NCBI GenBank assembly: GCA_040751815.1
Contig: JBFMHQ010000004.1
Location: forward strand, 12,756 to 76,755
Length of the DNA: 64,000 nt
Direction of reading: 5' to 3'
Source of the DNA: Bacillota bacterium
GTDB lineage: Bacteria; Bacillota; Desulfotomaculia; Desulfotomaculales; UBA12532
The translations under genes were made by a program, and so were the position numbers. Each line of letters opens with the position of its first letter. Positions within the stretch are counted from its first letter, which is position 1. The notes below the pieces were generated by a model that saw only the letters and a list, made by a program, of their open reading frames with translations, made no database searches and had not been told where the DNA came from. Positions 45,853-63,750 of the stretch are shown here, piece by piece.

Positions 45853-45854
45853 GG

Positions 45855-46760
45855 CTAGTTACCTCCCTGCACGACGTCGACGAACAGGTCCTCGAGGGAC
45901 CGCTGCACGCTTACCAGGCGGTAAAGGGCGGCGCCGTGCTCCACCACAAGGCGGGCCAGCCCCGGAATCTCCGCGCGGTCGCCCACCGTAAGGCGCAGGA
46001 CGCCACCGTTCCTTTTTACCTCCCGCCCGGCAGCGGCCAGGGCCGCTTCCAGCGCCGGGGTGCTCCCTTCGATTTCCATTTCGACCTCCAACGCCGGCGC
46101 CAGAAGATCCCGCAGCGCCCCCTGGGTCACGATTTCACCCCGGTTGATGATCGCCACGGTGTCGCAGACCATCTCCACCTCGCTCAGGAGGTGGCTGTTG
46201 AGAAAAACGGTCTTGCCCCGGGCCCGCAGGGCGAGCATGAGCTCCCGCATCTCCCGGCGGCCCAGCGGGTCCAGGGCCGATGTGGGCTCGTCGAGGAAGA
46301 CCAGGTCCGGATCGCCGATCAGGGCGCAGGCCACGCCCAGGCGCTGTTGCATCCCCTTGGAATAGTTCCTTATTTTCTGTCTTTCGCGCCCGGTGAGCCC
46401 CACCAGATCCAGCACCTCGGGGATGCGCCGGCGCGTCTCGCGGGCCGGCAGGCCGCAGAGGGCGCCGTGAACCGCCAGAAGCTCCGCCCCGGTCAGCCAG
46501 TCGTGGTAACGGAAGTTCTCGGGGAGGTAGCCGATGCGCCGCCGGATCGCGACGTCCCCCAGGGGCCGGCCCAGAAGCCAGGCCCGGCCGGAGGTGGGGT
46601 GCAGGAGCCCCACCAGGGTTTTAACCAGGGTGGTCTTGCCGGCCCCGTTCGGACCCAGGAAGCCGAAGATGTGGCCTCGGGGGACGGTCATGTTGATGTT
46701 GCGGCACCCGAGCCGGCCCCCGTAGAGCTTGGTCAGGTTTTCGACAACTATGGCCGCCAT
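45855..46760 (-). CDS. ABC transporter ATP-binding protein
   Basis: Walker A GPNGAGKTT, signature YSKGMQQR, Walker B LVFLDEPTSALD. Confidence 0.92.
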   Translation of the reverse strand: MAAIVVENLTKLYGGRLGCRNINMTVPRGHIFGFLGPNGAGKTTLVKTLVGLLHPTSGRAWLLGRPLGDVAIRRRIGYLPENFRYHDWLTGAELLAVHGALCGLPARETRRRIPEVLDLVGLTGRERQKIRNYSKGMQQRLGVACALIGDPDLVFLDEPTSALDPLGRREMRELMLALRARGKTVFLNSHLLSEVEMVCDTVAIINRGEIVTQGALRDLLAPALEVEMEIEGSTPALEAALAAAGREVKRNGGVLRLTVGDRAEIPGLARLVVEHGAALYRLVSVQRSLEDLFVDVVQGGN

Positions 46761-46764
46761 GGCG

Positions 46765-47886
46765 CTACCGCAGGGAGGCGGCCAGGTCCAGGGCCTCCCG
46801 GAGGCTCAGGGGGCCCTGAACGTAGTAGAGAACGCCGTCGCGCTGCCAGATCAGGTTGGAAGAAGGTGAGTTGCCGCCGGCGTGCGGCGGGAAGACGAAG
46901 ATACCCGGCCGGCCGTCAACGGTGACCTCCGTGGTCGGCCCCTCGGCGGGCAAGGGCAGGGTGTGCTGCCAGTCGCCGATGGCCGCCAGCTGCCGGCGCA
47001 GGTTCTCCGGCAGGCCCGGGATGTTCAGGAGGGCATCCCGCACCGCGGCCACGTCGACCCCCGGCGGTACGATCAGCTCCGGGCTGCGGGCCTGCACCAC
47101 GACGAGGAGTTTCCCGGCCGCCGGCCCGGCGCCGCGGTAGTACGCAGCTAGAACGGGGGGGATCTTGAAGGTAAACGTTTTCCCTTCCAGACCGGCCGGC
47201 AGCAGGTGCCTGCCGCCCAGGGAGCGCAGAAGCGCGTTGACATTTTCCACCTTCGGCGTGAAGGATACCTCCTGCGGCGTGCTCAGGTGCAGTTCGGGGT
47301 TGGCGAACCCGGCAGGCAGGCGGGACGGCATGCGCACGGGGAAGTCCAGGGCCTGCCGTGCCTCGGCCAGGGTTACCGGACGCACGTTTATTTCACTGCT
47401 GACGGTCACCTCGCCCAGGCTTTCGAGATCGATGTGCCCGCCCCGGGCGAGGACGCGTTCAAGCTGGGCCATATCCCGCTCGGTAATCTTGATCACCTTG
47501 AAACGTTCCACGCGCAAGACCTGCAGAAATTCCCCGGCCAGGCTGCGCACCGGGCCGAAGCTAAAGGCAAACACCAGGGCCGCGGCAGTGGCCAGAGCGG
47601 CCCAGAACTTTTTGTTGCGCAAGGCGGACACTCCTTTCTCCTGGAATAAGGATGGTTTGTACCGGGAGGAACGGAACTTCTGCCAGGCCTCCTGAGCGTC
47701 TTTTTCTGCCGCGGTGCCGGCATACCTGTCCAGGCACCCCGTAACCCAGGCTTCGTTTTCCCGGAGGGTTTGCAGGCGGGCGCAGCAGGCGGGGCAGCCG
47801 GCTAGGTGACGGCCGATGCGGGCCGCCTGCCGGCGGGAAGTTTCTCCGTCAAGGAACGCCTGAAGGCTTCCCTCGCTGTAGCACAT
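46765..47886 (-). CDS. anti-sigma factor (zf-HC2 N-terminus, single TM, DUF4367-like extracytoplasmic domain)
   Basis: ATG 47886. MCYSEGSLQAFLDGETS...HLAGCPACCARL zf-HC2 motif. TM helix FWAALATAAALVFAF. Sits directly downstream of the ECF sigma gene. Confidence 0.75.
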   Translation of the reverse strand: MCYSEGSLQAFLDGETSRRQAARIGRHLAGCPACCARLQTLRENEAWVTGCLDRYAGTAAEKDAQEAWQKFRSSRYKPSLFQEKGVSALRNKKFWAALATAAALVFAFSFGPVRSLAGEFLQVLRVERFKVIKITERDMAQLERVLARGGHIDLESLGEVTVSSEINVRPVTLAEARQALDFPVRMPSRLPAGFANPELHLSTPQEVSFTPKVENVNALLRSLGGRHLLPAGLEGKTFTFKIPPVLAAYYRGAGPAAGKLLVVVQARSPELIVPPGVDVAAVRDALLNIPGLPENLRRQLAAIGDWQHTLPLPAEGPTTEVTVDGRPGIFVFPPHAGGNSPSSNLIWQRDGVLYYVQGPLSLREALDLAASLR

Positions 47887-48400
47887 CCTTCGACCCTCCC
47901 TCCCCGATGTAAAGGTTTTTGAATCTGGCCCGGGCGCGGGCCAGCACGGTGCCCACGGCATTCCTTTTTATACCCAGCGCGGCGGCAATTTCGGCGTAGC
48001 TTGCGCCGCTGTACCTTAACCACAGGCAGGCGCGGTCGCGGGCGGAAAGTTTGGCCAGCGCCGCCTGGACCCGGGAGGTCTCGTCGCGCCGGAGGACACT
48101 GTCGGCCACGTCCTCCGCTCCTTCCCACGGCCCGGTGCGGGCGGTTTGGGCCGCTTCGCGGTGCGCCCGGCGGCGCTCGCTACGCAGGTGGTTGGCGGCC
48201 AGGTTGGCGGCGACCCGGAAAAGCCAGGCGCGGATGTTGGTCATGTCTGGCGGCGGGGACCGGTAAAGGCGCAGGAAGGTTTCCTGCGTCACGTCGTCGG
48301 CCGCCGTCCCGTCGCCCACGATGCCGCGCACCACCCGCAGCACCGCCGCGTAATGGCGCAGGAACAGGTATTCGAAATCGCCAGCCGGCGGATGATCCAC
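47849..48400 (-). CDS. ECF-family RNA polymerase sigma factor
   Basis: Region 2 DDVTQETFLRLY ... AWLFRVAANLAANHLR. Region 4 YAEIAAALGIKRNAVGTVLARAR. Confidence 0.88.
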   Translation of the reverse strand: MDHPPAGDFEYLFLRHYAAVLRVVRGIVGDGTAADDVTQETFLRLYRSPPPDMTNIRAWLFRVAANLAANHLRSERRRAHREAAQTARTGPWEGAEDVADSVLRRDETSRVQAALAKLSARDRACLWLRYSGASYAEIAAALGIKRNAVGTVLARARARFKNLYIGEGGSKDVLQRGKPSGVP

Positions 48401-48653: not shown

Positions 48654-49094
48654 GTGGTATGCCAGAACAGGAAAGCGTGGCACGATTACCAGATACTCGA
48701 GACTTACGAGGCCGGCATGGTGCTCACCGGGACCGAGGTTAAATCCCTCCGTGCCGGGCGGGCCAACCTGAAGGACAGCTTTGCCCGGATTGGCGACGGC
48801 GAGTTGTGGCTTGAAAACATGCATATCAGCCCTTACGAGCAGGGAAACCGCTTTAACCACGATCCCAAACGGGCGCGCAAGCTCCTGATGCACAAGGAGG
48901 AAATTATGCGCCTGTGGGGGCGGACCCGCGAGAAGGGGCTTGCGCTTATCCCTCTCAAGGTGTATTTTAAGAACGGCCGGGCCAAGGTGGAGCTGGCCCT
49001 GGCCAGGGGCAGGAAGATTTACGACAAGCGCGAGGACATTGCCCGCCGCGAAGCACAGCGGCAGATGGAGCGCGCCCTGCGCGGCAGGGCATAA
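48654..49094 (+). CDS. smpB: SsrA-binding protein SmpB
   Basis: [29 protein letters not shown] ... [12 protein letters not shown] start with a very short N-terminus. Confidence 0.93.
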
Positions 49095-49101
49095 AACATT
49101 T

Positions 49102-49453
49102 GGGGGCGACGAGGTTTCGACGGGGGAAGCGGTAACGAGGGGAGCGAGCCGGGGTCGTCACCAGCCCGTAAGACGGTGGCAAGGCAATAAACGCCAACAA
49201 GACCGAAGTAGCTCTGGCCGCTTAATCAGGCCGGCATCCTGCCGGTTCCCGCCCGCGGAGCCGGCTAGGGTGTCAACCTAGCGGGCTTGCCGGCGGGCCG
49301 CTTCTCGGAGGCCTGCCGGGACATCCATCGAGATAGCCTGCGCGCAGCCCGGCTGCGGGCGGCCCGCAGGCGAAAGCAGTACGCAGCCTGCGCTCGGAGA
49401 GCCTCTCGGGGTCGTTCCTCCGGACAGGGGTTCGACTCCCCTCGCCTCCACCA
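49102..49453 (+). ncRNA. ssrA: tmRNA (ssrA), predicted tag ANKTEVALAA
   Basis: 5' GGGGGCGACGAGGTTTCGACGGGG pairs with 3' CGCCTCC-ACCA, including the G3:U70 alanine identity pair. T arm GGGGTTCGACTCCCC. In-frame GCC AAC AAG ACC GAA GTA GCT CTG GCC GCT TAA at 49193-49225. Confidence 0.93.
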
Positions 49454-49626
49454 TTAAAATCCACAACCACTTTGAGGAATAGATCGACGTGGTCCTCGTG
49501 GACCACGACTTTGTCTACATAGGTAGCCACGACTCTCTTACAGGCTTGAGGATCGCCCGCGAGTATGTCCTGCCTGTGCTTTTCCAAGAGCGCGGCGATC
49601 ATCTCCTCGGTTAGTTCGCCGGTCTC
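49454..49626 (-). pseudogene. site-specific (serine-type?) recombinase C-terminal remnant reading into the tmRNA 3' end
   Basis: Minus frame ETGELTEEMIAALLEKHRQDILAGDPQACKRVVATYVDKVVVHEDHVDLFLKVVVDF continues in frame across the ssrA acceptor/T arm. A stop lies immediately upstream (49627-49629) and there is no catalytic domain. Confidence 0.4.
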
Positions 49627-51280: not shown

Positions 51281-51607
51281 GTACTTTGCGAGTATGCGAT
51301 TTTCGTCCCCGCGTCCTGGGGGAAAGAAGCGGTCAGGAACCTGCGGCGCGACCCCAGGTCAAGGGCGGTCCCCGTCGTAGTCGTGGGCGGCGGCCGGGAG
51401 TTCGTGCACGCCGGCGCGGACAGGTGCGTCGGGCGAATTACAGACGCGTTGGTGGATGAGGTTGCCGCCCTGGCGGACCGGCTGCGCTCTCTGTGGGAGA
51501 GGGCGGAGACGGACCCGCTCACCGGTTTGTACACCCGCGGCTTCTGGGACGTCTGGCTTCAGGAGCAAGTACGGTTGGGAAGGCGCCAGGAAAGGGGGGT
51601 TCCCAAG
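51281..51607 (+). pseudogene. response-regulator diguanylate cyclase (REC-GGDEF) remnant
   Basis: Frame open from 51281: ...KEAVRNLRRDPRSRAVPVVVVGGGREFVHAGADRCVG (end of a REC domain), a linker, then ETDPLTGLYTRGFW (start of a GGDEF domain). It then breaks off. No REC N-terminus and no GGDEF active site. Confidence 0.5.
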
Positions 51608-51772
51608 TTGAGCAAGCTCGTGCGGATACTCCGCGAGAAGCGCGGGCCCACCTTGGTCGAGTGGGCCGCCCTGGGGGTGCTCATCATCCTGGCGGTCTGG
51701 GCGGCGACCCAGGCGCTGGGCGTGAGCATCGGCGGCGTATTCCAGGACATCACAGGAAGGTTGGGACATTGA
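51608..51772 (+). CDS. Flp/Fap-family type IVb pilin (orphan)
   Basis: TTG 51608 (or GTG 51620) follows GGGGGG. MSKLVRILREKRG/PTLVEWAALGVLIILAVWAATQALG matches the Flp G/xxxxE(Y/W) cleavage motif plus hydrophobic helix. Confidence 0.6.
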   Translation: MSKLVRILREKRGPTLVEWAALGVLIILAVWAATQALGVSIGGVFQDITGRLGH

Positions 51773-51779
51773 CTGTGGC

Positions 51780-51808
51780 GCCGGGGGGGAGCCCCGGCAT
51801 TTTTATTT
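51780..51808 (+). terminator. rho-independent terminator after the Flp gene
   Basis: GCCGGGG-gggag-CCCCGGC followed by ATTTTTATTT. Confidence 0.65.
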
Positions 51809-51912: not shown

Positions 51913-53709
51913 TCACAACGGCCCGATTCCGGGGCCCACGGCATTCGAAGGCGGAGAAACACCGTAGGCGTTGTAGGCTCTGACACGATAAACGTGCAGG
52001 TACCAGGCGTACGGGGGAGAATCTTCGTACGCGGTAACGTTTGGGCCTACCCGTGCTATTTCGGTGAAGCTTGCAGAAACGTCTTGCCGTTCGATAATGA
52101 AACCATCTTCGTTGGTGGAGTTATCGTCCCAGGTTAGCCTGATTCTCCCTTCTGGCAATACTTCGGCCACGAGATTTGATGGGGCGTTGGGAATGCTGGG
52201 GGTGGTGGCCGTCGATACGTTGGAATAGTCCGAGGTAGCCGCGGCCTTATAGGCACGGACGCGGTAGGTGTAGGTGGTGCCCGGGTGCAGGCCGGTGTCC
52301 ACGTAACTCGTAACGTTGGCAGGGACACTTGCGATTTCAACGAAGTTCAGGGAACTCGCGGTGCGCCTTTCGATGCGGAACCCGTCTTCATGGAGCGAGT
52401 TATCCCGCCAGGTCAGCTTGACCTCGGTGGCCGCGATGGCCGTGGCAACCAAGTTCGAAGGTGGTTCGAGAACGATTGGCGTCGTAACCGTCGCTTCGTT
52501 CGAATAGCCTGAGGTCCCTGCGGCATTAAAGGCCAGAATGCGGTAGGTATAAGTGGTATTGCCCTCGACGGCACGGTCTGTGTAACTCGTGGCTTGCCCG
52601 ATCAGGGTGGCCACCCGCAGGAATGCCCCGGCCAGCCCTGCCCGGCGTTCAATAACAAATCCGTCCGCGCCGCTTCCGTTGGTTATCCAGGTGAGGTCCA
52701 CCTGGCCCGGCACTACGGCGGCAGCCGCCAGACCTGACGGATCTGGCGGAACATTCACCGGGAAGGTGGCCCGCACATCGATAATCGTCATCATGCCGCC
52801 CGGGTACTCATCGCTGTTGACGAGGTGCAGCAGTTCCCGGTCGTAAAGGTATTGCTCTCCCGCCGGAGGGGTATATACCAGGTCGCACGTCTGGCCCGGC
52901 CCTATGGTGACGGCGTTTTTGAGATAGCTGGCGTCCAACAGAGCGTTACGGCGGGGCCAGGCGTCCTCGGCGATTACACGCGCGGGTCCCCCGGCTATGG
53001 CCAGGGTATGGGGCAGGAAGCCGGCGTTGATCACACGCAGCAGGACTCTGGCGCCGGAAAGCACGTGGACACGGGCGGTAAGCGGTTGGGTGGACGTGTA
53101 GGGCGGCGCTATACAGTCTGGGAAGGGACGCCCGTTGATCAGCCAGTACCGGGGCGCGTAGCCGAGCGGATTGTAGGGGGTGCCGGCGGGAATGATGTCG
53201 TGCGCCGCGGGATCCAGTTCACTCAGGATTATCAAGGCCTCAACATCGTAACCACTGCCGGTGTCAGCACCGTACGCGGTGCGCAGGGATGGATCTGCGC
53301 CGTCATAGTCGGCCGGCCTCACAATCAGTGCGCCGTACAGACCCATCTGGACCTGCCGTTCGGGGCCGGTCCCCCCTTCGTAGCGGAAGGTTCCGGGGCG
53401 GGAGACAGGGAAGCTGTAGACCACACTCCTCCCGGGATCCGCAGGACGGTCCAGGGAGATTAGCCGGCCTTCGCCGTCGAGGACCGGATCCGGGGTAAGG
53501 TCCTGTCCCGGAAAGATGAGGCACACGGGTTCGTTTAATCTGTTGTGCAGCGTAATCTCTACCGTGTCCCCCACGCGGGCTTCAATGACCGGCCCGGGCA
53601 GTTGTGGTGCCGCGGTCGGATTTGTGGCGATGCCCCAAAACACTGTGGGAACACCGCCGGGCAAGGAGGCGATACCGGGGCGTACCCAGAACTGTTTTCG
53701 TACCAGCAT
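51913..53709 (-). CDS. two-cupredoxin-domain multicopper-oxidase-like protein lacking all copper ligands, fused to three fibronectin type III domains
   Basis: Paralogous to the next two genes (QLPGPVI, RQVQMGLYGALIVRPA, RYWLINGR, PGGMMT). The ligand positions read EGG, PHTLAIAG and LLHLVN. The C-terminal approx. 290 aa contain 3 repeats of the L.W......DGF.IER........Y.D..L...T.Y.YRV.A.N form. Confidence 0.8.
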   Translation of the reverse strand: MLVRKQFWVRPGIASLPGGVPTVFWGIATNPTAAPQLPGPVIEARVGDTVEITLHNRLNEPVCLIFPGQDLTPDPVLDGEGRLISLDRPADPGRSVVYSFPVSRPGTFRYEGGTGPERQVQMGLYGALIVRPADYDGADPSLRTAYGADTGSGYDVEALIILSELDPAAHDIIPAGTPYNPLGYAPRYWLINGRPFPDCIAPPYTSTQPLTARVHVLSGARVLLRVINAGFLPHTLAIAGGPARVIAEDAWPRRNALLDASYLKNAVTIGPGQTCDLVYTPPAGEQYLYDRELLHLVNSDEYPGGMMTIIDVRATFPVNVPPDPSGLAAAAVVPGQVDLTWITNGSGADGFVIERRAGLAGAFLRVATLIGQATSYTDRAVEGNTTYTYRILAFNAAGTSGYSNEATVTTPIVLEPPSNLVATAIAATEVKLTWRDNSLHEDGFRIERRTASSLNFVEIASVPANVTSYVDTGLHPGTTYTYRVRAYKAAATSDYSNVSTATTPSIPNAPSNLVAEVLPEGRIRLTWDDNSTNEDGFIIERQDVSASFTEIARVGPNVTAYEDSPPYAWYLHVYRVRAYNAYGVSPPSNAVGPGIGPL

Positions 53710-53713
53710 GGTC

Positions 53714-54949
53714 TCATCTCCTCTCCCCGGAGGGAGTCTTTTGCGAACGGAGCAAGCCCGTGTGGGGGCCGAGGCTTCCGGTAGGAAAAATGCCGATCAT
53801 GGTCATCATGCCGCCGGGAAACTTACCCCAGTTGGTGATCTGCGGTTCTTGGTGGGAGTGGAGCATAAAGTAGTACTCGCCCATTGTGTTGAAGGATGTT
53901 ACGCCTACAGGTATATCGCTCTTTATCCCCAGGTAGGGGCTGCCGCTCCACATCGTCCACCCTGCGCCCCCGATGGTCTGGTTGCGAGGGTTGGGAAGTA
54001 ACGTCGGGATGGGGTTCGTTACCGGATCGTAGCCCAAACCGTGCCATTCGAAGATCTGATCGTAAGTCTGGCCGCAGCCGACCAGCACCGTGAAGTGCTT
54101 GTGAGATAAGTCCTGCGTGCCGTTCCTCAGCAGCCGGCCGTCCGTTGCGACGACCCGGGTATGGTTGCCGTGAGGGTGCAGGGGGTGGTTGTCGACGCCC
54201 GCGCCGGCGTAGCGCAGGAGCACCTTTTCGCCCGGCTCCGCCATGATCATTGACCCGTATGGCTGCTGGGGAAGGTAGCCTGCCCCGTCGGGAAACATCG
54301 TATCGGGGGCACAGCGTCCGTTGATCGTCCAGTAGCGCGGCCTGTACGTGCCGGCCAGGAAGGGTTGCCCCAGTCGGACGGCCTCGTGCAGCAGCGGGTC
54401 GATCTCCCCGAGTACCAGAAGGTATTCGCGGTCGAATTCCGTTTCCGTTCCCGTCCCGTATGCCGTCCAGGTCGTCCGGTCCACGGGATCAAACCCGGCC
54501 GGGCGGACGATAATAACGCCATACAGGCCCATCTGCACCTGGCGGTGCATGGCCGTTCCGCTGTAATACAGGTAGGTTCCCGGGTTGAGTGCCGTGAAAC
54601 GGTAGGTCACCGTGCCGCCGGGAGGTGCGTAATCGGTGAGCGATATCAGGCGTCCGTTTGCGTACACGGGTTTAACGGGTGCGGTGCCGCTCTCGCTTGC
54701 GTTGAGCACCCCGCTCTGACCGGGGAACAAGATGGAGACGTTTTCGGGAAGCTCGTTGGTCAGCTTAACGGTAATCGTATCGCCCTGGTTAACCACGATC
54801 AATGGGCCCGGGAGTTGCGCCGGCCTCTCAGGCTGGTCCGTGTAACCCCATATGTAGATGCTTGCGCCGTCCGGGGTAATAATGTAACCCTCAGTGGCGC
54901 GCAGGTTGACGGTCACCGCCGTGCTTGCCTGGACAACCTCGGTTTGCAT
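53714..54949 (-). CDS. two-domain multicopper-oxidase-like protein retaining only the domain-2 trinuclear-site histidines
   Basis: Domain 1 motifs lost (VSILFPGQ; YLYYSGTAMH). Domain 2 keeps NHPLHPHGNH (54161-54190) and LHSHQ (53852-53860), with Ser in place of the T1 Cys. Confidence 0.8.
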   Translation of the reverse strand: MQTEVVQASTAVTVNLRATEGYIITPDGASIYIWGYTDQPERPAQLPGPLIVVNQGDTITVKLTNELPENVSILFPGQSGVLNASESGTAPVKPVYANGRLISLTDYAPPGGTVTYRFTALNPGTYLYYSGTAMHRQVQMGLYGVIIVRPAGFDPVDRTTWTAYGTGTETEFDREYLLVLGEIDPLLHEAVRLGQPFLAGTYRPRYWTINGRCAPDTMFPDGAGYLPQQPYGSMIMAEPGEKVLLRYAGAGVDNHPLHPHGNHTRVVATDGRLLRNGTQDLSHKHFTVLVGCGQTYDQIFEWHGLGYDPVTNPIPTLLPNPRNQTIGGAGWTMWSGSPYLGIKSDIPVGVTSFNTMGEYYFMLHSHQEPQITNWGKFPGGMMTMIGIFPTGSLGPHTGLLRSQKTPSGERR

Positions 54950-54967
54950 AGCATCTTCCTCCTCATC

Positions 54968-56002
54968 TTATAGCCCTGGCCCGGCCTGCGGCGGCAGGGT
55001 ACCGGCGCTTATCTCAACGTACGTCATCATCCCGCCCGGAGAAATTCCTGCATTGTTGTTTTTGTGATAACCCCTGTTGAACAACGGATAAACCCCGGGT
55101 TGCTGTGGTTCGATGATGGCGTCAACGGTCTGCCCGGCGCCGAAGTAAAGCACGTCGCGCCGGTGCGACAGGTCCTCACCGTTAAGGCCGCGCAGCAGCT
55201 GGGCATCGCGCGCGACGATTTTCATGGGCAGCCCGAGGATGGTGATGGCGTGCTGCTCATAGCCGAGGTTGACAAACCGTAAAAGCACCTTTTCCCCGGC
55301 GTTGGCCCGTATCAAGCACGGGTAGGGTTGCTGCGCCAAATCGCCTCGGGGTGTTATATCTGTGGTGTCCGGGTAAGCGCGGCCGTTGATCAACCAGTAA
55401 GCCGGGCGGTACTCGGTCCAGTCGTATTCCTGGGCGTTGAGGGTTTGCGTATGGGCCGAAGGGTCAAGTTCCGTGAGAACGAGAAAGTACTCCCGGTCAA
55501 AGGCCGTTCCCGTACCGGCCCCGTAGGCCGTCTTGAGCTGGGGATCTGCGGGATTATAGTCGGCGGGGCGGGCGATTAAGGGCCCGATCATGCCCATCTG
55601 AATATGTTCCACCGGCTCGAAGTGGCAATGGTACATGTAAGTGCCGGGATCCCTGGGTTCGTAGTAGTAAACGAAGTTGCGGCCTACGGGCACGGCAAAC
55701 GACGCCTCGGGCACCCCGTCCCAGAGCGGGATCTGGTTGCGAAAGCCGTGCCAGTGGATGGTATGTGAATCGTCAAGGTCCGGGCGCTGCGGCGTTCCCA
55801 GGTTGGTTAGAGTCAATTCCACCCTCCAACCAACCGCAACGTCCAGGAGCGGGGCTGGCAGCTGGGCCTTGCCCCGGTATCCGAATATCTCGTTTTCGGG
55901 GATTCCCGTTAGGTCGACAAAACCGAAAATGTAATGTGTCGAGCCGTCGGGCATCCTGATAAAGCCGTCGGTTGCCCCGTAACGCAGCTGAACGAGTGGC
56001 AC
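54968..56002 (-). CDS. two-domain multicopper-oxidase-like protein retaining only domain-1 copper ligands (HWHG, HCH....H..M)
   Basis: HTIHWHGF (55745-55756) and YMYHCHFEPVEHIQMGM (HCH at 55622-55630). Domain 2 has no HxH motifs (YEQHAITILG; GYHKNNNAG). Confidence 0.8.
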   Translation of the reverse strand: MPLVQLRYGATDGFIRMPDGSTHYIFGFVDLTGIPENEIFGYRGKAQLPAPLLDVAVGWRVELTLTNLGTPQRPDLDDSHTIHWHGFRNQIPLWDGVPEASFAVPVGRNFVYYYEPRDPGTYMYHCHFEPVEHIQMGMIGPLIARPADYNPADPQLKTAYGAGTGTAFDREYFLVLTELDPSAHTQTLNAQEYDWTEYRPAYWLINGRAYPDTTDITPRGDLAQQPYPCLIRANAGEKVLLRFVNLGYEQHAITILGLPMKIVARDAQLLRGLNGEDLSHRRDVLYFGAGQTVDAIIEPQQPGVYPLFNRGYHKNNNAGISPGGMMTYVEISAGTLPPQAGPGL

Positions 56003-56047: not shown

Positions 56048-59000
56048 CTAACGGGCTTCGCAGGCGCCGATATCCACCGTTGGCCCCTGCGGCCTCGGCT
56101 TACCGTCGTGGTCGGTATCGGGCGCGTTGAAGGTCTCGCTGCCAACGGTTAGAGTAGAGGCGCCCCGGTCGATGACCGGCGAGTCAGGGTTGAGGTGGTA
56201 GTCGCCCTGGACTTCGGGGACGGCGGTGACGATCTTCACGGTCTTGAAATCCGGTTCCATGTTAAAGGCCACCGCGGTAACGGCGGTATCGTACGCGGCG
56301 ACAAAGGACGGGTCGCCGATAACGTTGGTAGGGTCGGGAGCGCCGTAAGGTTTGGAGAGGCTGCAGTATACCGGGCTGAACACCTCCGGTGTCGGGGTGC
56401 CGAAGACCTCGAGGTCAACGACGTTTATCGGTGTGGCGTCCCCTGTGGCACCGATACCGACAATGCCGCCGCGCCCTTCATTGGCGGTCTGGTCGTACCA
56501 ACCGGCGCGGTTATCCCAGAAGATGTTGTTAAAGAGGACGGGGTTGCTGAAGGGCGGGGAGCCCGGTGGCAAAATGGTCCTGAAAGCGGCGCTGTGCGCC
56601 TCGCTGACCAGGCCGGCCCCGTGCGGCCGGCCGTCGCTGTCTTCGGCCGTAGCCGTGGTGATGTTCTTGGCGATGGTGTTGTTGTAAATAACCACGTTGG
56701 ATGCGTCGTCCAGGGCAATGCCGCCCCCGAGGTCGGTCGAAACGTTGTTGGTGATGATATTGTTGTAAATGTTGATGCGGAAAGTACCCGGTTGCAGCAG
56801 GCGGATGCCGCCCCCGTCGTCGTTGGCCAGGTTGCCTTGGATGAGGTTGTTGTAGATGTCTACCGCCCCGGAACCGGGAGTGAAGGCATCAGGGGCCGCC
56901 GGCTGTTCGCCCCCGACGAAGATCCCTCCTCCTTCGTCAAAGGAGGCGTTGAAAAGGAACCTGTTATGGTAGATGCGCCCGCCGTGGCTGAGGCCGTAGT
57001 GGGACAGACCGCCACCGTATTCGGCGGAGTAGTTGCCGCAGACCTCGTTATGGTCGAACTCGTAGCCGTGGGCTCCGGAGAAAATCCCCACGCCACCGGC
57101 CAGGCTTATGCCGCCGTTGTTAAGGATCCGGTTGTGGTGGATGCGTACCCCGTCGTTGGCGTTATCGCCGGCATAGGGTCTGCCGATAGTGATCGCTCCC
57201 CCGAACCCGCCGCCGTTGCTTTGAATGGTATTGTTGCTAATTTCCAGGTACCGGCAATAGGCATTGACAAAAATCCCGCCGCCTTCTTCGCCTCTGGCGC
57301 CGGTGATGGTAAAGCCGTCGATTTGCGTCCGGAAGGCGGCGCCGAAATCCCCATCTCTGGCTACGACCGTGATCACCTGTCCGCGGGGTATTTCCTGGGA
57401 CCCGTCGAAGGTCAGCGAGGCGAGTTTGGTTTCCCAGGACCGTTGGTAGCTGGCGAAAAAGCGGCCGTCCAGTTTCGTTGCCTCGGGGCCCATTCCCTGC
57501 AGCTTTATGTTCTTGTAGACGATAGGGCTTTCGTAATAGACGCCGGGGTAGACGACAACCAGTGCTCCCGGGGGTGCAGCGTCGATGGCCGCCTGGATGG
57601 TTGTCGCGGGCGTTGCGTCGTAAATCGGGGGGCTATATCCGCCGCCCAGAACGTGTATCGTAATACCCTGCGTGCCGGAGATGCCGGCAGCGGTGGTCAC
57701 GACGAGTTGGGCCGGGCCGGCAGGAAAGTTTCTGGGGATGCGCACGGCAATGAGCGTATCGCTCCAGTACAACACGGGGATGGGCACGTTGTTGAGAAAA
57801 ACCGTTCCCCGGGTCCGGCCGAAGTTGCGCCCCCTGATATTTATCCTGCGGTTACCGGTTGGAGTGACGTAGACTCGGTTGACGCTCCCGACCTGTGGGA
57901 TCGCGGTGGTTTGGCAGACCGGCGGCCGGGAGAACTGTGCTCCCGGAATTCCCACGAAGGCCGTTATGGGGAAGAGGGCTACGTCGGCATACGTGGTTTT
58001 GCCGGGCCACACGTCGAAAACCATTTTCAGCGTCTGGTAGTTGGGGTTATAGTTCGCGTTGGGCCTGTCGGGATCGCCCGGGTCGTTGCCGACGATCTGG
58101 TACATTCCCGGCGCCACACCGGAGGGGGTTGGTACGTTGGCCGTATAGGTCGAAGGGAGGAGTACTTCGAAAACACCGTTGGCATCCGAATGAACCGTTT
58201 TGATCAGTTTTCCGGTATAATCCCGGATGCCGACCGGCGTGTGCGGGATGCCGCGCTTTTCGCCGTAATAGATAAAGGCAGGATCGGTCTCAAGGTTCAC
58301 GTCGTCCAGGAGGAACCCGACGATGCGGCCGGGCACCGGAACGTCTGTGTACAGGAAGAAGTCGGCCACCGCGTTTTGGCCGTATTTCACGGTTACGATT
58401 TTCGTGTCCCTGGTGTCGCCGTAATAGGGGGGCGGGGCCGTTTGGGCCACAAACTCATCACCCTCGTCTGTATTGACGCTTGTGGCGCTAAGAACCTTGT
58501 AGAGCGGTCTGGGCCGTCCCTCCACCGGATTGTACGGATCGGCGGGTGGTACAACCTGCACCAGGTAGGTCCCGGGGAGAAGCGGTTTTTCAACTGCCCC
58601 CGGGGCGCCGTAATAGGGGTCGAACCAGGTGTTGAACGCGTAACCGCCGTCAAAGGCGCCTTCCTTAATTTGATTGGAGCTATGCGGAACTTCAAGGCAG
58701 TTCGGGTCGGGGGTGCCGTCGGGCCTTACGCACCCGGCAGGATGCTGCCAGGCGTCGGTTTGTACGCTATTAATGAGGGTCTTTGTGCCGTCCTCGTTCA
58801 AGCGGTACAGGTTGACGGTGACGTTCGGGATGCCGGGTTCGTACTCTTCGGCTACGGCGTAGCGGGGGTCGAGCTCGTTGCGCATCGTCGCGTAGTAGAC
58901 AACCCCCGAGATACCCCCGTGGATCACATCGTCTGCCGTTCCAACCGTTCCGTCCGGCCCCGGCAGGGGGTATTCCCACATTCCCCAGTCGATACGGTTC

Positions 59001-60493
59001 GTCTTTGCCGCCCACGTAAGCACGGCCAGAGTAAGCACCCCGGGATGGGTGCTGGTGGGGCGCGGGGGGGCAATGCCGGCATCAGGGGTGGCGGTGGCAG
59101 CGGTAGGTCCGAAGCGCGTAAAGTCAAGCTCCGCCACGGCGAACCTTTCCAGTTCGAAAACCTCGTTCAGTGAGTACCAGCCCTCCGCGTCGGTTACGGT
59201 GCTGTATTGGACGCTGCCGTCCTTGAAGCGCGTGCCCACCGCGACGTTTGGGATGCCTTCTTCGACGTAATTTCCGTCGGCGTCTTTATCGCGTATGCCG
59301 TTGCCGTTCTCGTCGCGGAAGACCGTCCCGCTTATCCAGCCGAACCATCGCGGTATGCCGATATCGCCCATATCGACCGTTTCGCCTTCGCCGACCTGGA
59401 CCGTGCGGAAAGAAATGATGTGGTCGAGGGGCTCATCCCAAATAGCCATCTGGTACAGCCCCGCCGGCACGTGTTCTATTGTGAACGTGCCGTCCGGGTT
59501 GCCCCGGCCGGTGTAAACCTGCTCGTCGTTGCCGCCGATATCGGTCAGGGCAATCCAGGGGCGGTCGACCGGCCCACCGAGGATGAGGGGCCTGACCGGG
59601 GGTGTAAACTCGATGATGGTACGCACGCGGCCGATAATTGTGCCCGTCCCCGCTCCGGGAGCGAAGGCCATCGGCCTTACGAAGCCGATCCAGACGAGGG
59701 GCATCCGGAAACCTTCCCGTGGGCTGTATCCGTCGTTGCCCTCCTCCACCCAGGCATCGATCACGTGCGTGCCCTCAATGGTAGTCGTCTGGATCCAGTC
59801 CGTGCCGTCCGGGGGGATTGCCTGGACTTCGTATTTTCCCGGGGGAAGGTTTTCAATAACCGCGTCGCCGTTGGCGTCGGTCAGGATTACCCCGCCGGTA
59901 TTAGGAACGGGAATCGGCTTCCCTTCAGGGTCGAGGATAAGGTTTCCGCCGTCATCGCGTTGGTAAACGGTGCCGAGGGGATTGCCGAAATAGTCCACCG
60001 TTACCTCGCCTACCACGTCGCCGATGACGATCCGAAAGCCCGGGAGGCCGTGTTCCAGGGGCACGTCGTCTTCGCCGTTTACCGGGTGGTTATCCTCGAA
60101 AACGTGAACGCGAATCCTGGAAAGGGGCAGGGGATGGGGCTGCAGCTCAACCGTCACTGTACTGTCGCTATTCAGGTCGATCCAGTTGCCCCCCAGTTTA
60201 TGTCCGGGCGCTCTCACGGTGACAAGATATTTGCCGGCGGGCAGTAGGACTGCGGGCCGCACGGAATCCCCCGTGGCTACGACCGGACTGTGGCTCGCTC
60301 CCGGTTTCAGGGACGGCCAGTTCTCACGGTTTGGAGCGAATGGATCTCCTACATTGTCCTCGTTGACAATGAATTTGAAATCGGTGATAGGCGTGCCTGT
60401 TCCTGCCTGCAATACCCTTACGACAAGCCGAAACAGGCGAGCCTGTAACTTGCCCGGCACGGCCGGTTTCCTGCCATTGTCCGCGTCCTTCAT
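56048..60493 (-). CDS. 1481-aa multidomain protein: SdrD-B/Cna-B-like beta-sandwich repeats, IPT/TIG domain, right-handed beta-helix (PbH1 repeats, choice-of-anchor-Q-like end)
   Basis: ISGTVFRDENGNGIRDKDADGNYVEEGIPNVAVGT...TDAEGWYSL (SdrD-B-like). VNRVYVTPTGNRRINIRGRNFG...LVVTTAAGIS (IPT). Repeated ..NN.I..N blocks (ISNNTIQSN, HHNRILNN, IYNNLIQGN, IYNNIITNN, IYNNTIAKN). C-terminus DTDHDGKPRPQGPTVDIGACEAR. ATG follows GGAGG. Confidence 0.85.
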   Translation of the reverse strand: MKDADNGRKPAVPGKLQARLFRLVVRVLQAGTGTPITDFKFIVNEDNVGDPFAPNRENWPSLKPGASHSPVVATGDSVRPAVLLPAGKYLVTVRAPGHKLGGNWIDLNSDSTVTVELQPHPLPLSRIRVHVFEDNHPVNGEDDVPLEHGLPGFRIVIGDVVGEVTVDYFGNPLGTVYQRDDGGNLILDPEGKPIPVPNTGGVILTDANGDAVIENLPPGKYEVQAIPPDGTDWIQTTTIEGTHVIDAWVEEGNDGYSPREGFRMPLVWIGFVRPMAFAPGAGTGTIIGRVRTIIEFTPPVRPLILGGPVDRPWIALTDIGGNDEQVYTGRGNPDGTFTIEHVPAGLYQMAIWDEPLDHIISFRTVQVGEGETVDMGDIGIPRWFGWISGTVFRDENGNGIRDKDADGNYVEEGIPNVAVGTRFKDGSVQYSTVTDAEGWYSLNEVFELERFAVAELDFTRFGPTAATATPDAGIAPPRPTSTHPGVLTLAVLTWAAKTNRIDWGMWEYPLPGPDGTVGTADDVIHGGISGVVYYATMRNELDPRYAVAEEYEPGIPNVTVNLYRLNEDGTKTLINSVQTDAWQHPAGCVRPDGTPDPNCLEVPHSSNQIKEGAFDGGYAFNTWFDPYYGAPGAVEKPLLPGTYLVQVVPPADPYNPVEGRPRPLYKVLSATSVNTDEGDEFVAQTAPPPYYGDTRDTKIVTVKYGQNAVADFFLYTDVPVPGRIVGFLLDDVNLETDPAFIYYGEKRGIPHTPVGIRDYTGKLIKTVHSDANGVFEVLLPSTYTANVPTPSGVAPGMYQIVGNDPGDPDRPNANYNPNYQTLKMVFDVWPGKTTYADVALFPITAFVGIPGAQFSRPPVCQTTAIPQVGSVNRVYVTPTGNRRINIRGRNFGRTRGTVFLNNVPIPVLYWSDTLIAVRIPRNFPAGPAQLVVTTAAGISGTQGITIHVLGGGYSPPIYDATPATTIQAAIDAAPPGALVVVYPGVYYESPIVYKNIKLQGMGPEATKLDGRFFASYQRSWETKLASLTFDGSQEIPRGQVITVVARDGDFGAAFRTQIDGFTITGARGEEGGGIFVNAYCRYLEISNNTIQSNGGGFGGAITIGRPYAGDNANDGVRIHHNRILNNGGISLAGGVGIFSGAHGYEFDHNEVCGNYSAEYGGGLSHYGLSHGGRIYHNRFLFNASFDEGGGIFVGGEQPAAPDAFTPGSGAVDIYNNLIQGNLANDDGGGIRLLQPGTFRINIYNNIITNNVSTDLGGGIALDDASNVVIYNNTIAKNITTATAEDSDGRPHGAGLVSEAHSAAFRTILPPGSPPFSNPVLFNNIFWDNRAGWYDQTANEGRGGIVGIGATGDATPINVVDLEVFGTPTPEVFSPVYCSLSKPYGAPDPTNVIGDPSFVAAYDTAVTAVAFNMEPDFKTVKIVTAVPEVQGDYHLNPDSPVIDRGASTLTVGSETFNAPDTDHDGKPRPQGPTVDIGACEAR

Positions 60494-60525: not shown

Positions 60526-60552
60526 TAAGTTATGCATCTTGGCATATTTTGT
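60526..60552 (-). promoter_or_regulatory. candidate sigmaK-type (mother-cell) promoter upstream of the four-gene operon
   Basis: Minus strand reads AC-N16-CATAACTTA (AC at 60551-60552, CATAnnnTA at 60526-60534), about 32 nt upstream of the ATG. The motif is short, so this is tentative. Confidence 0.3.
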
Positions 60553-60993: not shown

Positions 60994-61356
60994 CTAATAC
61001 AGCACGTCGAACGCGACCAAGGTGGCGGGCGCCTCGCAGGCCAGTTTCTTCGGTTTCTCGGCTGCGCAGGCGAAGCGGCGCATCACCCTGGCGAAGTCGG
61101 GCTGGTCGCCGGTGAACACGGTCAACTCGCCGTCGATGATCACGTCCCGCGCGGGCAGGGTCAGGCCCTGGAACTCGGGGAACTGCCCGGTGCAGCGCGT
61201 GCCGTGCCTGGTGTAGATTTCGATTTTCCCCGACGCGAAATCGGCGTGCAGGAGCGCCCGTATCCCGTCAATTTTGGGTTCGAATAGGTGCTCCTCACTA
61301 TCGAAAGGTACCTTACACTGTACCGGGAGCATCGGCTTGATCGCGGTAAAGAGCAT
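60994..61356 (-). pseudogene. ATP-dependent DNA ligase (LigD-type) N-terminal fragment
   Basis: Motif I EPKIDGIRAL, motif III VIIDGELTVF, motif IIIa LVAFDVLY, then a stop. Motifs IV-VI are absent. Confidence 0.6.
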
Positions 61357-61539: not shown

Positions 61540-61560
61540 AACCGGCCGCGTGGGCCGGTT
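61540..61560 (-). terminator. hairpin terminator after the transposition ATPase
   Basis: AACCGGCC-gcgtg-GGCCGGTT overlaps the stop codon. T-rich tract follows on the minus strand (TCTCTTTCTC). Confidence 0.5.
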
Positions 61561-62366
61561 CACGACTCGTCTTCGAACTCCCCGAGGGCGCGCCTGGCCG
61601 TGGCCTCGTCGATGATGGATTTTTCCTGCAGGAACCCGTCCAGCAGGCAGGCGGTGCAGATGTTGTTGATCTTGCGGGGTATGCCCTTCGAGAAGTGGTA
61701 GATCACAGCCACGGCCTCGTCGGAGAACAGCGCGTGCTTGGCACCCGCCACCCGGAGGTGATGCTCGATATAGGCTTTCGTCTCCTGGGCCGAGAGCCCG
61801 CTCAAGTGAAACCGTAGATTCACCCGCTGGGCGATGGCCTCGAAGGTCTGCAGCCGCAGCCGGTGCCGCAGCTCGGTCTGGCCCACCAGGATCAGGGCCA
61901 TGGGCGAGGCGGCGTCCATTTGAAAATTGGTCAAGAACCGGATTTCCTCCAGCATGGCAGGACTGAGCAGGTGCCCCTCGTCGATGATGATTACCGGCTG
62001 CTTGTCGTGGTTCTTGTAGGCGTCCCAGAGAGCCTCGACGAGCTGCCGCCGGGCGTCGGCCGCGTGAAAGGCGGGCTTGAGCCCCATCTGGATGCAGAGT
62101 TCCCGGTAGAGATGCCGGGGTGTGAGGCCCGAGTGCGAGACGTACAGCACCCGGTAGTGCGCCGGGTCCAGCTGATGGGAGAGCGCCCGCACCGCGGTGG
62201 ACTTTCCGGCTCCCACCTCGCCGGTCAGAAGCCCGAAACCGCGCGTGCGCACCAGGTAGTTTAACCGCGCCAGGGTCTCCTTGACCTGCGCCGAAGGAAA
62301 CAGGTTCTCCGGCGCGATCTGGCGGCTGAAGGGCGTGGTGGTGAACCCGTAAAAGGCTTCAAACAC
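61560..62366 (-). CDS. AAA+ ATPase, ExeA/TniB-like transposition helper
   Basis: Walker A GEVGAGKST, Walker B VIIIDEGHLL. Typical partner of Mu/Tn552-type DDE transposases. Confidence 0.8.
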   Translation of the reverse strand: MFEAFYGFTTTPFSRQIAPENLFPSAQVKETLARLNYLVRTRGFGLLTGEVGAGKSTAVRALSHQLDPAHYRVLYVSHSGLTPRHLYRELCIQMGLKPAFHAADARRQLVEALWDAYKNHDKQPVIIIDEGHLLSPAMLEEIRFLTNFQMDAASPMALILVGQTELRHRLRLQTFEAIAQRVNLRFHLSGLSAQETKAYIEHHLRVAGAKHALFSDEAVAVIYHFSKGIPRKINNICTACLLDGFLQEKSIIDEATARRALGEFEDES

Positions 62367-63750
62367 TGGTTTCCTCCTCCCCTCCGGGCACGTGGAAGGT
62401 AATCCGCCCCAACTCCTCCTTCAGCGCGGCGGTATGTTTCTTGCGCAGCAGCTCCAGATAGCTCAGCCTGGGCAGCGGTTCGCTGGTGGCGTGATCTGGC
62501 GGCACCTCCACCCGCTCGTCGGTTTTGCGGCGCAGCTCCAGGGGCCGGGCCTCGCCCACGGCCTGCCCGTCGTAAAAGACCTGCAGGCGGCTTAAGTCAA
62601 AGGGGTCGTAGCGGATCTCGATGGTCACCCCGGCCAGGTGCGCCGGCGCCTCGTAGCGGTTGCCCTGGAAGCTAAAGCAGGCGGTCTTGTCCGTCTTGCG
62701 CTTTTCCCGCCACAGAAAGGCCGCGGTGAGGGCCAGGGGGTCGGCCAGACGGATCTCCCCGGGCCCCTTGGCGAAGCGTGCGGCCGGACATGAACCGGTC
62801 TCGGCGTGCACGTGGTGGTGGTAGAACTGCTCCAGCCAGGCCCAGAAGAACTCGTTGAGCTCTTCCAGGGTTTTAGGCTTCAGGCGCACCACCTCTGGGA
62901 TAAAGGACCGCTGCACCGTGCCGAAGAAGCGCTCCACCTTGCCCTTGCCCTCGGGCGCGTAGGGCCGAGCCGAAAGGTGTCTGATGCCCAAGTGGGCGCA
63001 CACCAGGGCGAACTGCCGGGACTGAAACACCGCGCCGTTGTCGCAGTAGACCCTGGCCGGGATCCCGCGCTTCAGGATGGCCTGCTTGAAGCAGTGCAAG
63101 AGACTCACCAGGTCCTCGGCAAAGTAGAACTGGGCGTGGCAGACCAGCCGCGAGTAGTCGTCCAGGAAGGCCACGAGATAGGTGCGGCGCTTCTTGTGGG
63201 GGTCCTGGGGATCAGGCAACCAGGGCCCGTAGCACACGTCGGCCTGCCACAGCTGGTTGGGTCCTTCCTGCTCGAAGCGGCGAAAAGTTTTGGCCGGCTG
63301 GGCGAGCAGCCGCCGGGTCTTGCCCAGGAGCCGCAAGTGCCGGGCCAGGGTGGAGACCTTCAACCCTCCGGGTTCCACGGGCGTTTCGGGGTCCATGACC
63401 AGTATGTCCACGATCTGCCGCACGCGGCGCTGGGGCAGCTCCTCCTTCAGGGCCACGGCCTTGGCCAGCACCTCCGGGCTTATGGCCCGGGGTCGGGAGC
63501 GGTCGCGGCGCGGCTTGGGCTTTAAGGCCTCGAAGCCTCCCTCCCGGTAGGCCTTCTGCCAGCGGCGCAAGGTCCGGGCCGAGACCTGCCGGTAACCGCC
63601 GCCGGGTAAAGCGTGCGGGCGGCTTAAGATTTCCCGGCGCCGGCGGCTCTTCTCGGCCCGGTCGAGGCCGGGCTCCAAAAGCGGGCTGATGATGCCGTAG
63701 CGAAACAGGGCCTCCTCGGTGGCGCGGTCTTCCGAGCGCATAACCCTCAC
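62359..63750 (-). CDS. DDE-type (rve) transposase with Mu-transposase-like C-terminal domain
   Basis: N-terminal HTH region. DDE candidates in WQADVCYG, VYCDNGAVF, PEGKGKVERFF. C-terminal ACFSFQGNRYEAP...IEIRYDPFDL is typical of the Mu transposase C-terminal domain. Confidence 0.85.
   Translation of the reverse strand: MRVMRSEDRATEEALFRYGIISPLLEPGLDRAEKSRRRREILSRPHALPGGGYRQVSARTLRRWQKAYREGGFEALKPKPRRDRSRPRAISPEVLAKAVALKEELPQRRVRQIVDILVMDPETPVEPGGLKVSTLARHLRLLGKTRRLLAQPAKTFRRFEQEGPNQLWQADVCYGPWLPDPQDPHKKRRTYLVAFLDDYSRLVCHAQFYFAEDLVSLLHCFKQAILKRGIPARVYCDNGAVFQSRQFALVCAHLGIRHLSARPYAPEGKGKVERFFGTVQRSFIPEVVRLKPKTLEELNEFFWAWLEQFYHHHVHAETGSCPAARFAKGPGEIRLADPLALTAAFLWREKRKTDKTACFSFQGNRYEAPAHLAGVTIEIRYDPFDLSRLQVFYDGQAVGEARPLELRRKTDERVEVPPDHATSEPLPRLSYLELLRKKHTAALKEELGRITFHVPGGEEETSV

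Follow-up and report, generated by a model that had tools for sequence, protein, structure and literature searches.

The stretch of DNA analysed here, referred to as the window, comprises 64,000 nucleotides (nt) of contig JBFMHQ010000004.1 from a Bacillota bacterium (assembly GCA_040751815.1), and the subject of this study was a cassette of four genes within it, three of which encode proteins of the multicopper oxidase (MCO) superfamily. According to the open reading frame (ORF) map of the window, these genes, designated G, A, B and C, are located on the minus strand and densely packed head to tail in this order, with gaps of 45, 18 and 4 nt when each gene is taken as the longest possible ORF (Table 1). 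The three MCO-like ORFs had been proposed in an initial annotation of the sequence, and both their coordinates and their assignment were confirmed by the ORF map and by Pfam, since A, B and C alike passed the gathering scores of PF07732, PF07731 or PF00394. A, B and C are paralogous members of the multicopper oxidase superfamily, and it was found that the histidines of one copper cluster are divided between A and B, while C has none. The B protein was 100% identical to P0121, an NCBI protein labelled 'MAG: Bacillota bacterium', and the nearest named relatives of A were those of Moorella and Neomoorella, with approximately 80% identity. A PDB sequence search with G gave a weak match to an Ig-like domain and nothing else.

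The best PDB sequence matches of both A and B were 3G5W (blue copper oxidase of Nitrosomonas europaea) and 2ZWN (metagenomic mgLAC), which are two-domain multicopper oxidases (2dMCOs) of type C. AlphaFold models of A and B each consisted of two beta-sandwich domains, and the top Foldseek matches of these models in the PDB were again 3G5W and 2ZWN (target-normalised template modelling score of 0.74-0.79), with the Nmar_1354 structure 9CCK also among the top fold matches. In the type C enzymes 3G5W and 2ZWN, domain 1 carries the type-1 copper and four of the histidines of the trinuclear cluster, and the remaining four cluster histidines are supplied by domain 2 of the neighbouring chain. Two-domain laccases are homotrimers in which the active site is formed where two monomers meet (PMC3192119). 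The ligands of A, B and C were assigned by motif-level alignment together with general knowledge of MCOs, and the motif coordinates were checked by translation.

The copper pattern of A, HxxHxH followed by HCH, is of the MCO type. In the HMMER alignment, the HTIHWHG motif of A was written with the same letters in 3G5W and 2ZWN, and HCHFEPVEHIQMGM was aligned with HCHVNVNEHVTMRGM, with the Cys-to-His spacing of 7 found in 3G5W. A complete type-1 site (H80, C126, H133 and M138) and the H125-C126-H127 triad were present in A only and were absent from B and C. The type-1 site suggested in the initial annotation thus stood as far as C126, H133 and M138 were concerned, but the fourth ligand, H80, had not been named and has to be added. 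The D95-G96 pair following HWHG was invariant in A, and D95 occupies what we take to be the position of the second-sphere Asp of MCOs. In domain 2 of A, both HxH pairs were lost: profile-profile alignment against B placed T254/L256 and F308/R310 in their positions, and the second pair was turned into [YF]-x-R, with R310 found in 81 of 83 sequences. Translation, HMMER and profile-profile alignments therefore agreed with the earlier statement that the 344-aa protein retains the domain-1 ligand set alone. The model of A had a mean predicted local distance difference test score (pLDDT) of 90 and a predicted template modelling score (pTM) of 0.91, with low confidence at the copper loops (residues 80-100 and 120-140). 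Copper nitrite reductase was considered as an identity for these proteins and rejected, because NCBIfam TIGR02376 scored 35-47 bits against a cut-off of 296 and the ligand pattern of A is not of the nitrite reductase type, in which the type-2 site draws one His that follows the type-1 His, one that precedes the Cys and one from the neighbouring domain 2.

B showed the reverse arrangement. Its NHPLHPHG was aligned by HMMER with HAIHTHG of 3G5W and its LHSH with IHDH of the same protein, whereas in domain 1 the profile-profile alignment placed V71, L74 and P76 opposite H80, H83 and H85 of A and Y-S-G opposite HCH. The loss of the domain-1 ligands and the retention of the domain-2 set in the 411-aa protein, as proposed earlier, were thus evident from translation and alignments alike. 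The serine of HSH had also been interpreted as a replacement of the type-1 Cys; this holds against the generic MCO motif only. Because 3G5W and 2ZWN have HDH at this place, and P0316, a complete type C protein, has HSH in domain 2, this serine does not stand for a lost type-1 Cys. A type-1 site is absent from domain 2 of type C enzymes, and this part of B is therefore an ordinary domain of that kind. Directly ahead of HSH, B contains an insertion of its own, which is highly conserved, with many nearly invariant residues between 313 and 354, and is a candidate interface or lid segment. In the monomer model of B (pLDDT 88.6, pTM 0.89), the insertion had a pLDDT of 55-62. Judging from the models, the weakly predicted copper loops of A and the insertion of B would fit segments that become ordered only upon assembly.

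A separate observation concerns the first His of the domain-2 HxxHxH motif, which in domains with a type-1 site is the position of a type-1 ligand. This residue was kept in A (H251, 80/83) and in C (H234, 73/76), though the cluster histidines of their second domains are lost. In contrast, B keeps the cluster histidines, yet its H255 was variable, with Tyr in 42 and His in 35 of 80 sequences.

C consists of two cupredoxin domains followed by C-terminal fibronectin type III (FN3) repeats, of which two stretches passed Pfam and the repeat pattern suggests three. In the alignment, no ligand was present at any of the four copper motifs of C, which confirmed the earlier description of the 598-aa protein as free of copper ligands. 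Nevertheless, the full two-cupredoxin core was kept in C, which also has QVQMGL-type motifs in common with B. The tail differed by lineage: it was lacking or was composed of FN3 repeats, of Big_13 Ig-like repeats or of a dockerin. Bit scores of C orthologues were also lower, approximately 230-330 vs approximately 450-570 for A and B.

Table 1. Positions of the cassette genes, copper motifs and other features mentioned in the text (window positions, or locus and position where a locus is named).
Feature	Position	Strand	Description
G	56048..60493	-	Cassette gene 1, 1481 aa; CarboxypepD_reg, SdrD_B, TIG Ig-like domains, right-handed beta-helix, choice-of-anchor Q C-terminus (Pfam/NCBIfam)
A	54968..56002	-	344 aa two-domain MCO subunit; domain 1 with copper ligands, domain 2 degenerate
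B	53714..54949	-	411 aa two-domain MCO subunit; domain 1 degenerate, domain 2 with both HxH pairs
C	51913..53709	-	598 aa; ligand-free MCO-like part and C-terminal repeats
A motif HTIHWHG	55745..55765	-	Residues 80-86; H80 type-1 ligand, H83 and H85 cluster ligands
A motif HCHFEPVEHIQMGM	55589..55630	-	Residues 125-138; H125, H127 cluster ligands; C126, H133, M138 type-1 ligands
B motif HPLHPHG	54167..54187	-	Residues 255-261; H258, H260 cluster ligands
B motif HSH	53852..53860	-	Residues 364-366; H364, H366 cluster ligands
B-specific insertion	53879..54043	-	Approximately 55 residues of domain 2 (303-357)
A H251	55250-55252	-	First His of domain-2 HxxHxH
B H255	54185-54187	-	First His of domain-2 HxxHxH
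C H234	53008-53010	-	First His of domain-2 HxxHxH
C MCO-like part	52735..53709	-	Two cupredoxin domains without any copper ligand
C FN3 repeats	51913..52734	-	C-terminal repeats and stop codon
Candidate sigma-K-like promoter AC-N16-CATAACTTA	60526..60552	-	CATA box starts 41 nt upstream of the G start codon
GC-rich hairpin	51780..51798	.	Approximately 115 nt downstream of the C stop codon
Pilin-like small ORF	51596-51772	+	End resembles an Flp/Fap pilin
ATP-dependent DNA ligase fragment	60997-61356	-	120 aa; PF01068 positions 17-124 of 204, E 1.3e-12
AAA_22 (TniB-like) ATPase	61560-62366	-	Part of the transposition module
rve / Mu-transposase-C protein	62359-63750	-	Part of the transposition module
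Recombinase C-terminal remnant-like ORF	49273-49602	-	Overlaps the tmRNA 3' end
tmRNA gene	49102-49453		Tag ANKTEVALAA
smpB-like ORF	48654-49094	+	Recognized by eye
ECF-type sigma factor	47849-48400	-	Beyond smpB
zf-HC2 anti-sigma-like ORF	46765-47961	-	Beyond smpB
ABC-2 transporter pair	45013-46760	-	Beyond smpB
Gene E (examples; 40 further loci)	L057:13470-13937; L084:4622-5116; L085:12237-12686; L086:18659-19105		Small fifth gene
CopC-CopD fusion gene	L084:5113-6966		After gene E
SCO1/SenC protein gene	L086:7032-7652		Upstream of the cassette, opposite strand
ABC_tran / ABC2_membrane pair	L001:13457-15311		Limnochorda pilosa, right after C

Consequently, the eight histidines of a trinuclear cluster, which form four HxH pairs, were encoded as two pairs in A, two pairs in B and none in C, and never in one gene product. 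An alignment demonstrating homology of the retained histidines to copper ligands had been named as a check in the initial annotation; the HMMER and profile-profile alignments indeed placed these residues on the type C copper motifs. The prediction that neither copper-binding paralogue would be complete as a homotrimer also held, because no chain has both half-sites and the full eight-His set requires A plus B.

Conservation of this division was studied in a scan of one genome per species, in which 558 loci with relatives of A were found. The best 80 of the 558 were examined; they belonged to Bacillota (Moorella, Thermincola, Desulfallas, Peptococcaceae and Symbiobacteriaceae), Chloroflexota and Actinomycetota (Micromonospora, Kribbella, Actinoplanes, Terrabacter and others). 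Limnochorda pilosa and Desulfoscipio gibsoniae provided extra Bacillota loci. In A, the ligands H80, H83, H85, C126, H127, H133 and M138 were present in 83 of 83 sequences and H125 in 82 of 83. Among the B sequences with a residue at the position concerned, H258 and H260 were found in 79/79 and H364 and H366 in 78/78. The degenerate positions of A and B were essentially never His in the 80 loci, an HxH pair was never restored, and the ligand set was absent from all 76 C sequences. So consistent a pattern lies well outside what chance would produce. Overall identity between orthologues was 45-80%; since the twelve ligand residues were kept almost invariant even at approximately 45% identity, they must be under strong selection. 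The conserved ligands argue against vestigial sites. This bears on the possibility that A, B and C have a structural or scaffolding role without enzymatic activity, as FtsP/SufI does, and that their remaining ligands are relics, as might be supposed from the ligand-free C, its weak NCBIfam match to FtsP and the resemblance of G to a surface-structure protein. Given that the twelve ligands were nearly invariant across three phyla while the adjacent degenerate positions drifted, this explanation is scarcely credible. The identity with FtsP itself was rejected on ligand patterns.

The gene order was conserved as strictly as the ligands. Among the 80 loci from the three phyla, G, A, B and C followed each other on one strand in every locus with enough DNA, and C was present in each locus reaching past B. 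A more distantly related clade showed the same complementary ligands and gene order. When 1.84 billion representatives were searched exhaustively with HMMER, 4712 relatives of A were obtained, and the long ones were inspected. Many proteins of approximately 1400-2800 aa turned out to be composed of a G-like region and a C-terminal A-type unit, with HT[VI]H[FWY]HG, YHCHVEAxEHMQMGM and a domain 2 without HxH. In both loci examined that encode such G-A fusions, a B-type gene (LHPFHFHG, WHSH and a degenerate domain 1) and a ligand-free C-type gene follow. Another protein, P0346 (884 aa), consists of a B-type unit, a linker of approximately 170 residues and a C-type unit, and its gene is located directly after an A gene, forming an A-[BC] cassette. 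The G-A and B-C fusions point to one assembly for all four products, on the Rosetta-stone principle. A fused three-unit, six-domain protein was not found among the 150 best representatives of the A search.

Taken together, four independent lines of comparative data, namely the homology of the ligands, their conservation in three phyla, the invariable gene order and the fusions, strongly supported a heteromer, and we consider it probable that A and B form a split-site heteromer with C and G as partners. G as a partner, like the lack of export signals described below, had been overlooked in the initial annotation.

Two further features of the long relatives were noted. In the G-A fusions P0272, P0264, P0279 and P0313, a Gly/Ser-rich segment, a Cys and a hydrophobic helix with basic residues lie between the two parts, and at the end of the same linker there is a second signal-like hydrophobic segment before the A-type unit. 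This linker looks like a C-terminal sorting signal and a new signal peptide in one ORF, which suggests processing into two proteins. In P0336 (745 aa, L088:578-2815), a complete type C unit is combined with a B-like one, and a small cupredoxin is located at the C-terminus. In the B-like unit, domain 1 is degenerate, and HAMHLHG and HDH are found in domain 2. P0336 represents another mix of complete and half-degenerate units.

Export signals differed between the phyla. A twin-arginine signal (e.g., LSRRSFLGG) was present on A in Actinomycetota and Chloroflexota, where B, C and G have Sec-type signals; because all four products carry signals, the complex should assemble and receive copper outside the cell in these organisms. 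In the Bacillota loci, including the window, no signal peptide was present on G, A, B or C. Therefore, assembly in the organism studied here is expected to be intracellular. In Actinomycetota, the use of the twin-arginine translocation (Tat) pathway by A and of the Sec pathway by B and C means that the chains do not leave the cytoplasm already assembled. This would be in line with A and B acting as separate homo-oligomers, A as a half-site blue-copper electron-transfer protein or oxidase and B as a copper-binding, chaperone-like protein, their complementarity being coincidental. However, no catalytic use is known in this family for four histidines on one interface face, the half-sets are the exact two halves of one known cluster and occur together in all 80 loci, and the B-C and G-A fusions indicate one assembly. 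The separate function of A and B was thus judged improbable.

A small fifth gene, designated E, follows the cassette in the Actinomycetota and Chloroflexota lineages and in those with the G-A fusion. Its product of approximately 150-165 aa is hydrophobic in an N-terminal segment, and the motifs YvVLD and MkQgH are conserved. Gene E was located directly after C in 41 loci from Actinomycetota and Chloroflexota, whereas in both G-A-fusion loci it comes one or two genes after C. No Pfam family was matched by gene E or by the neighbours of the fusion loci, and gene E was not detected in the Bacillota loci or in the window even by a six-frame search with a hidden Markov model at E <= 10. Its product is possibly an extracytoplasmic copper-loading or assembly factor. 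Copper-related genes were seen close to individual cassettes, namely a CopC-CopD fusion gene in one locus and a gene for an SCO1/SenC protein in another (Table 1).

For the Bacillota enzyme, the endospore surface, reached after assembly in the mother cell, appears to be the most likely site of deposition. G has an extracellular-type architecture yet lacks an export signal in endospore-forming lineages, and in this it recalls, by analogy, the coat and exosporium proteins of the mother cell. CotA and MnxG are coat or exosporium proteins made in the mother cell. A candidate sigma-K-like promoter was found upstream of G in the window, and in 10 of 28 non-redundant Bacillota loci, sigma-K/sigma-E-like -10 boxes occurred within 130 nt upstream of G, vs 1.8 expected from dinucleotide shuffles. 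None of 300 shuffles reached 10 loci, and the reverse-complement control gave 2. The full sigma-K pattern was present upstream of G in 5 of 28 Bacillota loci vs 0.17 expected. This enrichment is real but partial, and the promoter boxes are suggestive of a spore-surface location. Literature searches for spore-related MCOs in Moorella or Desulfotomaculum returned nothing relevant.

Based on the homology to the type C enzymes, a trinuclear cluster can be accommodated only where domain 1 of A meets domain 2 of B, and the split of the motifs over A, B and C allows one site per ring at most. If the cluster lies between these two domains, B precedes A, and the ring order is B, A, C. In the proposed mechanism, A, B and C would be subunits of one enzyme, arranged in a ring like the type C trimer but with a single catalytic unit. 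The substrate would be oxidised at the type-1 copper in domain 1 of A (H80, C126, H133 and M138). The H125-C126-H127 triad, which would link this copper to the trinuclear cluster, provides a path that is intact within A. The cluster itself would be bound by H83, H85, H125 and H127 of A domain 1 and by H258, H260, H364 and H366 of B domain 2, and O2 would be reduced to water at this sole A/B interface. C would serve as the copper-free paralogue in the third ring position, closing the ring and bearing the lineage-variable tails, and G, as a fourth partner, may tether or present the oxidase.

In its full form, this reading describes an obligate heterotrimer of A, B and C, that is, a six-domain ring with one type-1/trinuclear unit, permanently bound to the giant scaffold G; in Bacillota, the mother cell would assemble it and the spore would display it. 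It would make the heterotrimer a living intermediate between homotrimeric two-domain and single-cluster six-domain MCOs. As one joint statement, it was given somewhat less than an even chance; the 1:1:1 stoichiometry, ring order, physical assembly, activity and location are all predictions. Several observations weigh against it. Since A is exported by Tat and B and C by Sec in Actinomycetota, assembly and copper loading outside the cell are required there. In one variant locus (L087), A and B are accompanied by a tandem C-C gene with a dockerin, so a simple ring of one A, one B and one C may not be universal. As to the spore location, no box resembling those of mother-cell sigma factors was found in 18 of the 28 Bacillota loci, and the first strict sigma-K test upstream of G was positive in 2 of 24 loci, the later test having used better start sites and sigma-E/K -10 boxes. 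The sigma-E/K consensus was taken from Bacillus subtilis.

The tandem C-C gene also bears on the stoichiometry. A and B might make the cluster in an assembly other than 1:1:1, such as A2B, AB2 or a higher order, with C as a separate accessory or anchor. The faster evolution of C reflected in its bit scores and the variability of its tails would be understandable in such a case, and hexameric and dodecameric forms exist among the solved relatives. C was nevertheless encoded in every locus extending beyond B, has retained its two-cupredoxin core and the motifs of B, and is fused to B in P0346. An assembly other than the ring of A, B and C is therefore regarded as unlikely, though not far-fetched.

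The surroundings of the cassette were also inspected (Table 1). The GC-rich hairpin downstream of C likely marks the end of the operon, and the minus-strand transcript would terminate there; its T run is on the plus strand only (an A run precedes it on the minus strand), and it was scored as a plus-strand terminator. On the plus strand, this hairpin follows a small ORF whose end contains GPTLVEW and then a hydrophobic stretch; its Pfam match was weak (E 0.034) and below the cut-off.

Directly upstream of the cassette, an ATPase gene and an rve gene form a Tn7/Mu-like transposition module, and between these genes and G there is a truncated gene for an ATP-dependent DNA ligase, whose product matches only the first half of the adenylation domain. 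On the other side, an smpB-like ORF is followed on the same plus strand by the gene for transfer-messenger RNA (tmRNA), with a recombinase remnant-like ORF overlapping the 3' end of the latter. Just past the tmRNA gene, the region has a lower GC content and short ORFs without Pfam matches. The MCO cassette may be in an island inserted at ssrA. Genes for a sigma factor of the extracytoplasmic function (ECF) type, an anti-sigma-like protein and an ABC-2 transporter pair lie beyond smpB. An ABC_tran / ABC2_membrane pair was found right after C in Limnochorda pilosa, and the proximity of transporter pairs to the cassette in both cases is probably a coincidence.

If the proposed heterotrimer is correct, the ligands split by duplication would show a symmetric copper enzyme turning asymmetric, with redundant sites lost and no gene fusion yet. 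Enzymologists would gain a 2dMCO with a single addressable type-1/trinuclear pair, and A, B or C expressed singly would yield inactive protein. The cassette is widespread, with the 558 genome loci ranging from Bacillota to Actinomycetota (such as Micromonospora and Kribbella). Public names of relatives of A, B and C are generic, namely 'multicopper oxidase domain-containing protein', 'copper oxidase' or the automatic 'ferroxidase' and 'manganese oxidase'. The constant link to G and the division of the phyla by export signals point to an unstudied oxidative function at the cell surface or spore surface.

2dMCOs are considered homotrimeric, and laccases, nitrite reductases and ceruloplasmin are seen as their descendants. 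Among known systems, the type C members of the A/B/C classification of two-domain enzymes (PMC3192119) resemble the cassette proteins most in detail: they have two cupredoxin domains with the type-1 site in domain 1 (here that of A), the HTIHWHG and HCHx5Hx4M layout, and HxxHxHG and H[DS]H in domain 2. They differ in being homotrimers encoded by one gene with three complete sites, whereas here the motifs are split over two paralogues and the third has none; moreover, the signal peptide is absent here, and a giant partner gene is always located upstream. Full-text searches of the literature turned up no natural heteromeric or heterotrimeric 2dMCO, and the sole 'heterotrimer' met with was Nmar_1354 of Nitrosopumilus maritimus (PDB 9CCK), a 2dMCO trimer termed alpha-alpha-alpha' (PMC11761707). 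Its three chains come from a single gene, and the asymmetry arises because one of them has lost a pendant domain by proteolysis (PMC11761707); ligands are not divided between paralogues as they are in the cassette.

FtsP/SufI is similar to C in that the cupredoxin folds are kept and all copper ligands are lost. However, FtsP is a three-domain periplasmic cell-division protein, and no ligand-bearing paralogues are encoded beside it. The spore-coat laccase CotA of Bacillus subtilis and the exosporium Mnx complex (MnxG with MnxE/F) are MCOs that lack a signal peptide and pass from the mother cell to the spore surface, a location that for the present proteins is presumed. Mnx is likewise multi-subunit. 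CotA differs in being a monomeric three-domain MCO, and the accessory subunits of Mnx are not cupredoxin paralogues and give no ligands to the cluster.

Nakamura and Go are said to have proposed in 2005 a route from 2dMCO trimers to six-domain MCOs; PMC3192119 refers to their work (ref. 27) solely for the A/B/C classes. By analogy, the proposed ring resembles the ceruloplasmin-type enzymes, whose six domains are arranged in a ring of pseudo-threefold symmetry, the single cluster lying between domains 1 and 6. These consist of one chain with three type-1 sites, whereas here there are three chains and one type-1 site, and the homology is at the cupredoxin level only. With the ring order A-C-B, the arrangement of the cassette proteins would match the ceruloplasmin-type domain layout.

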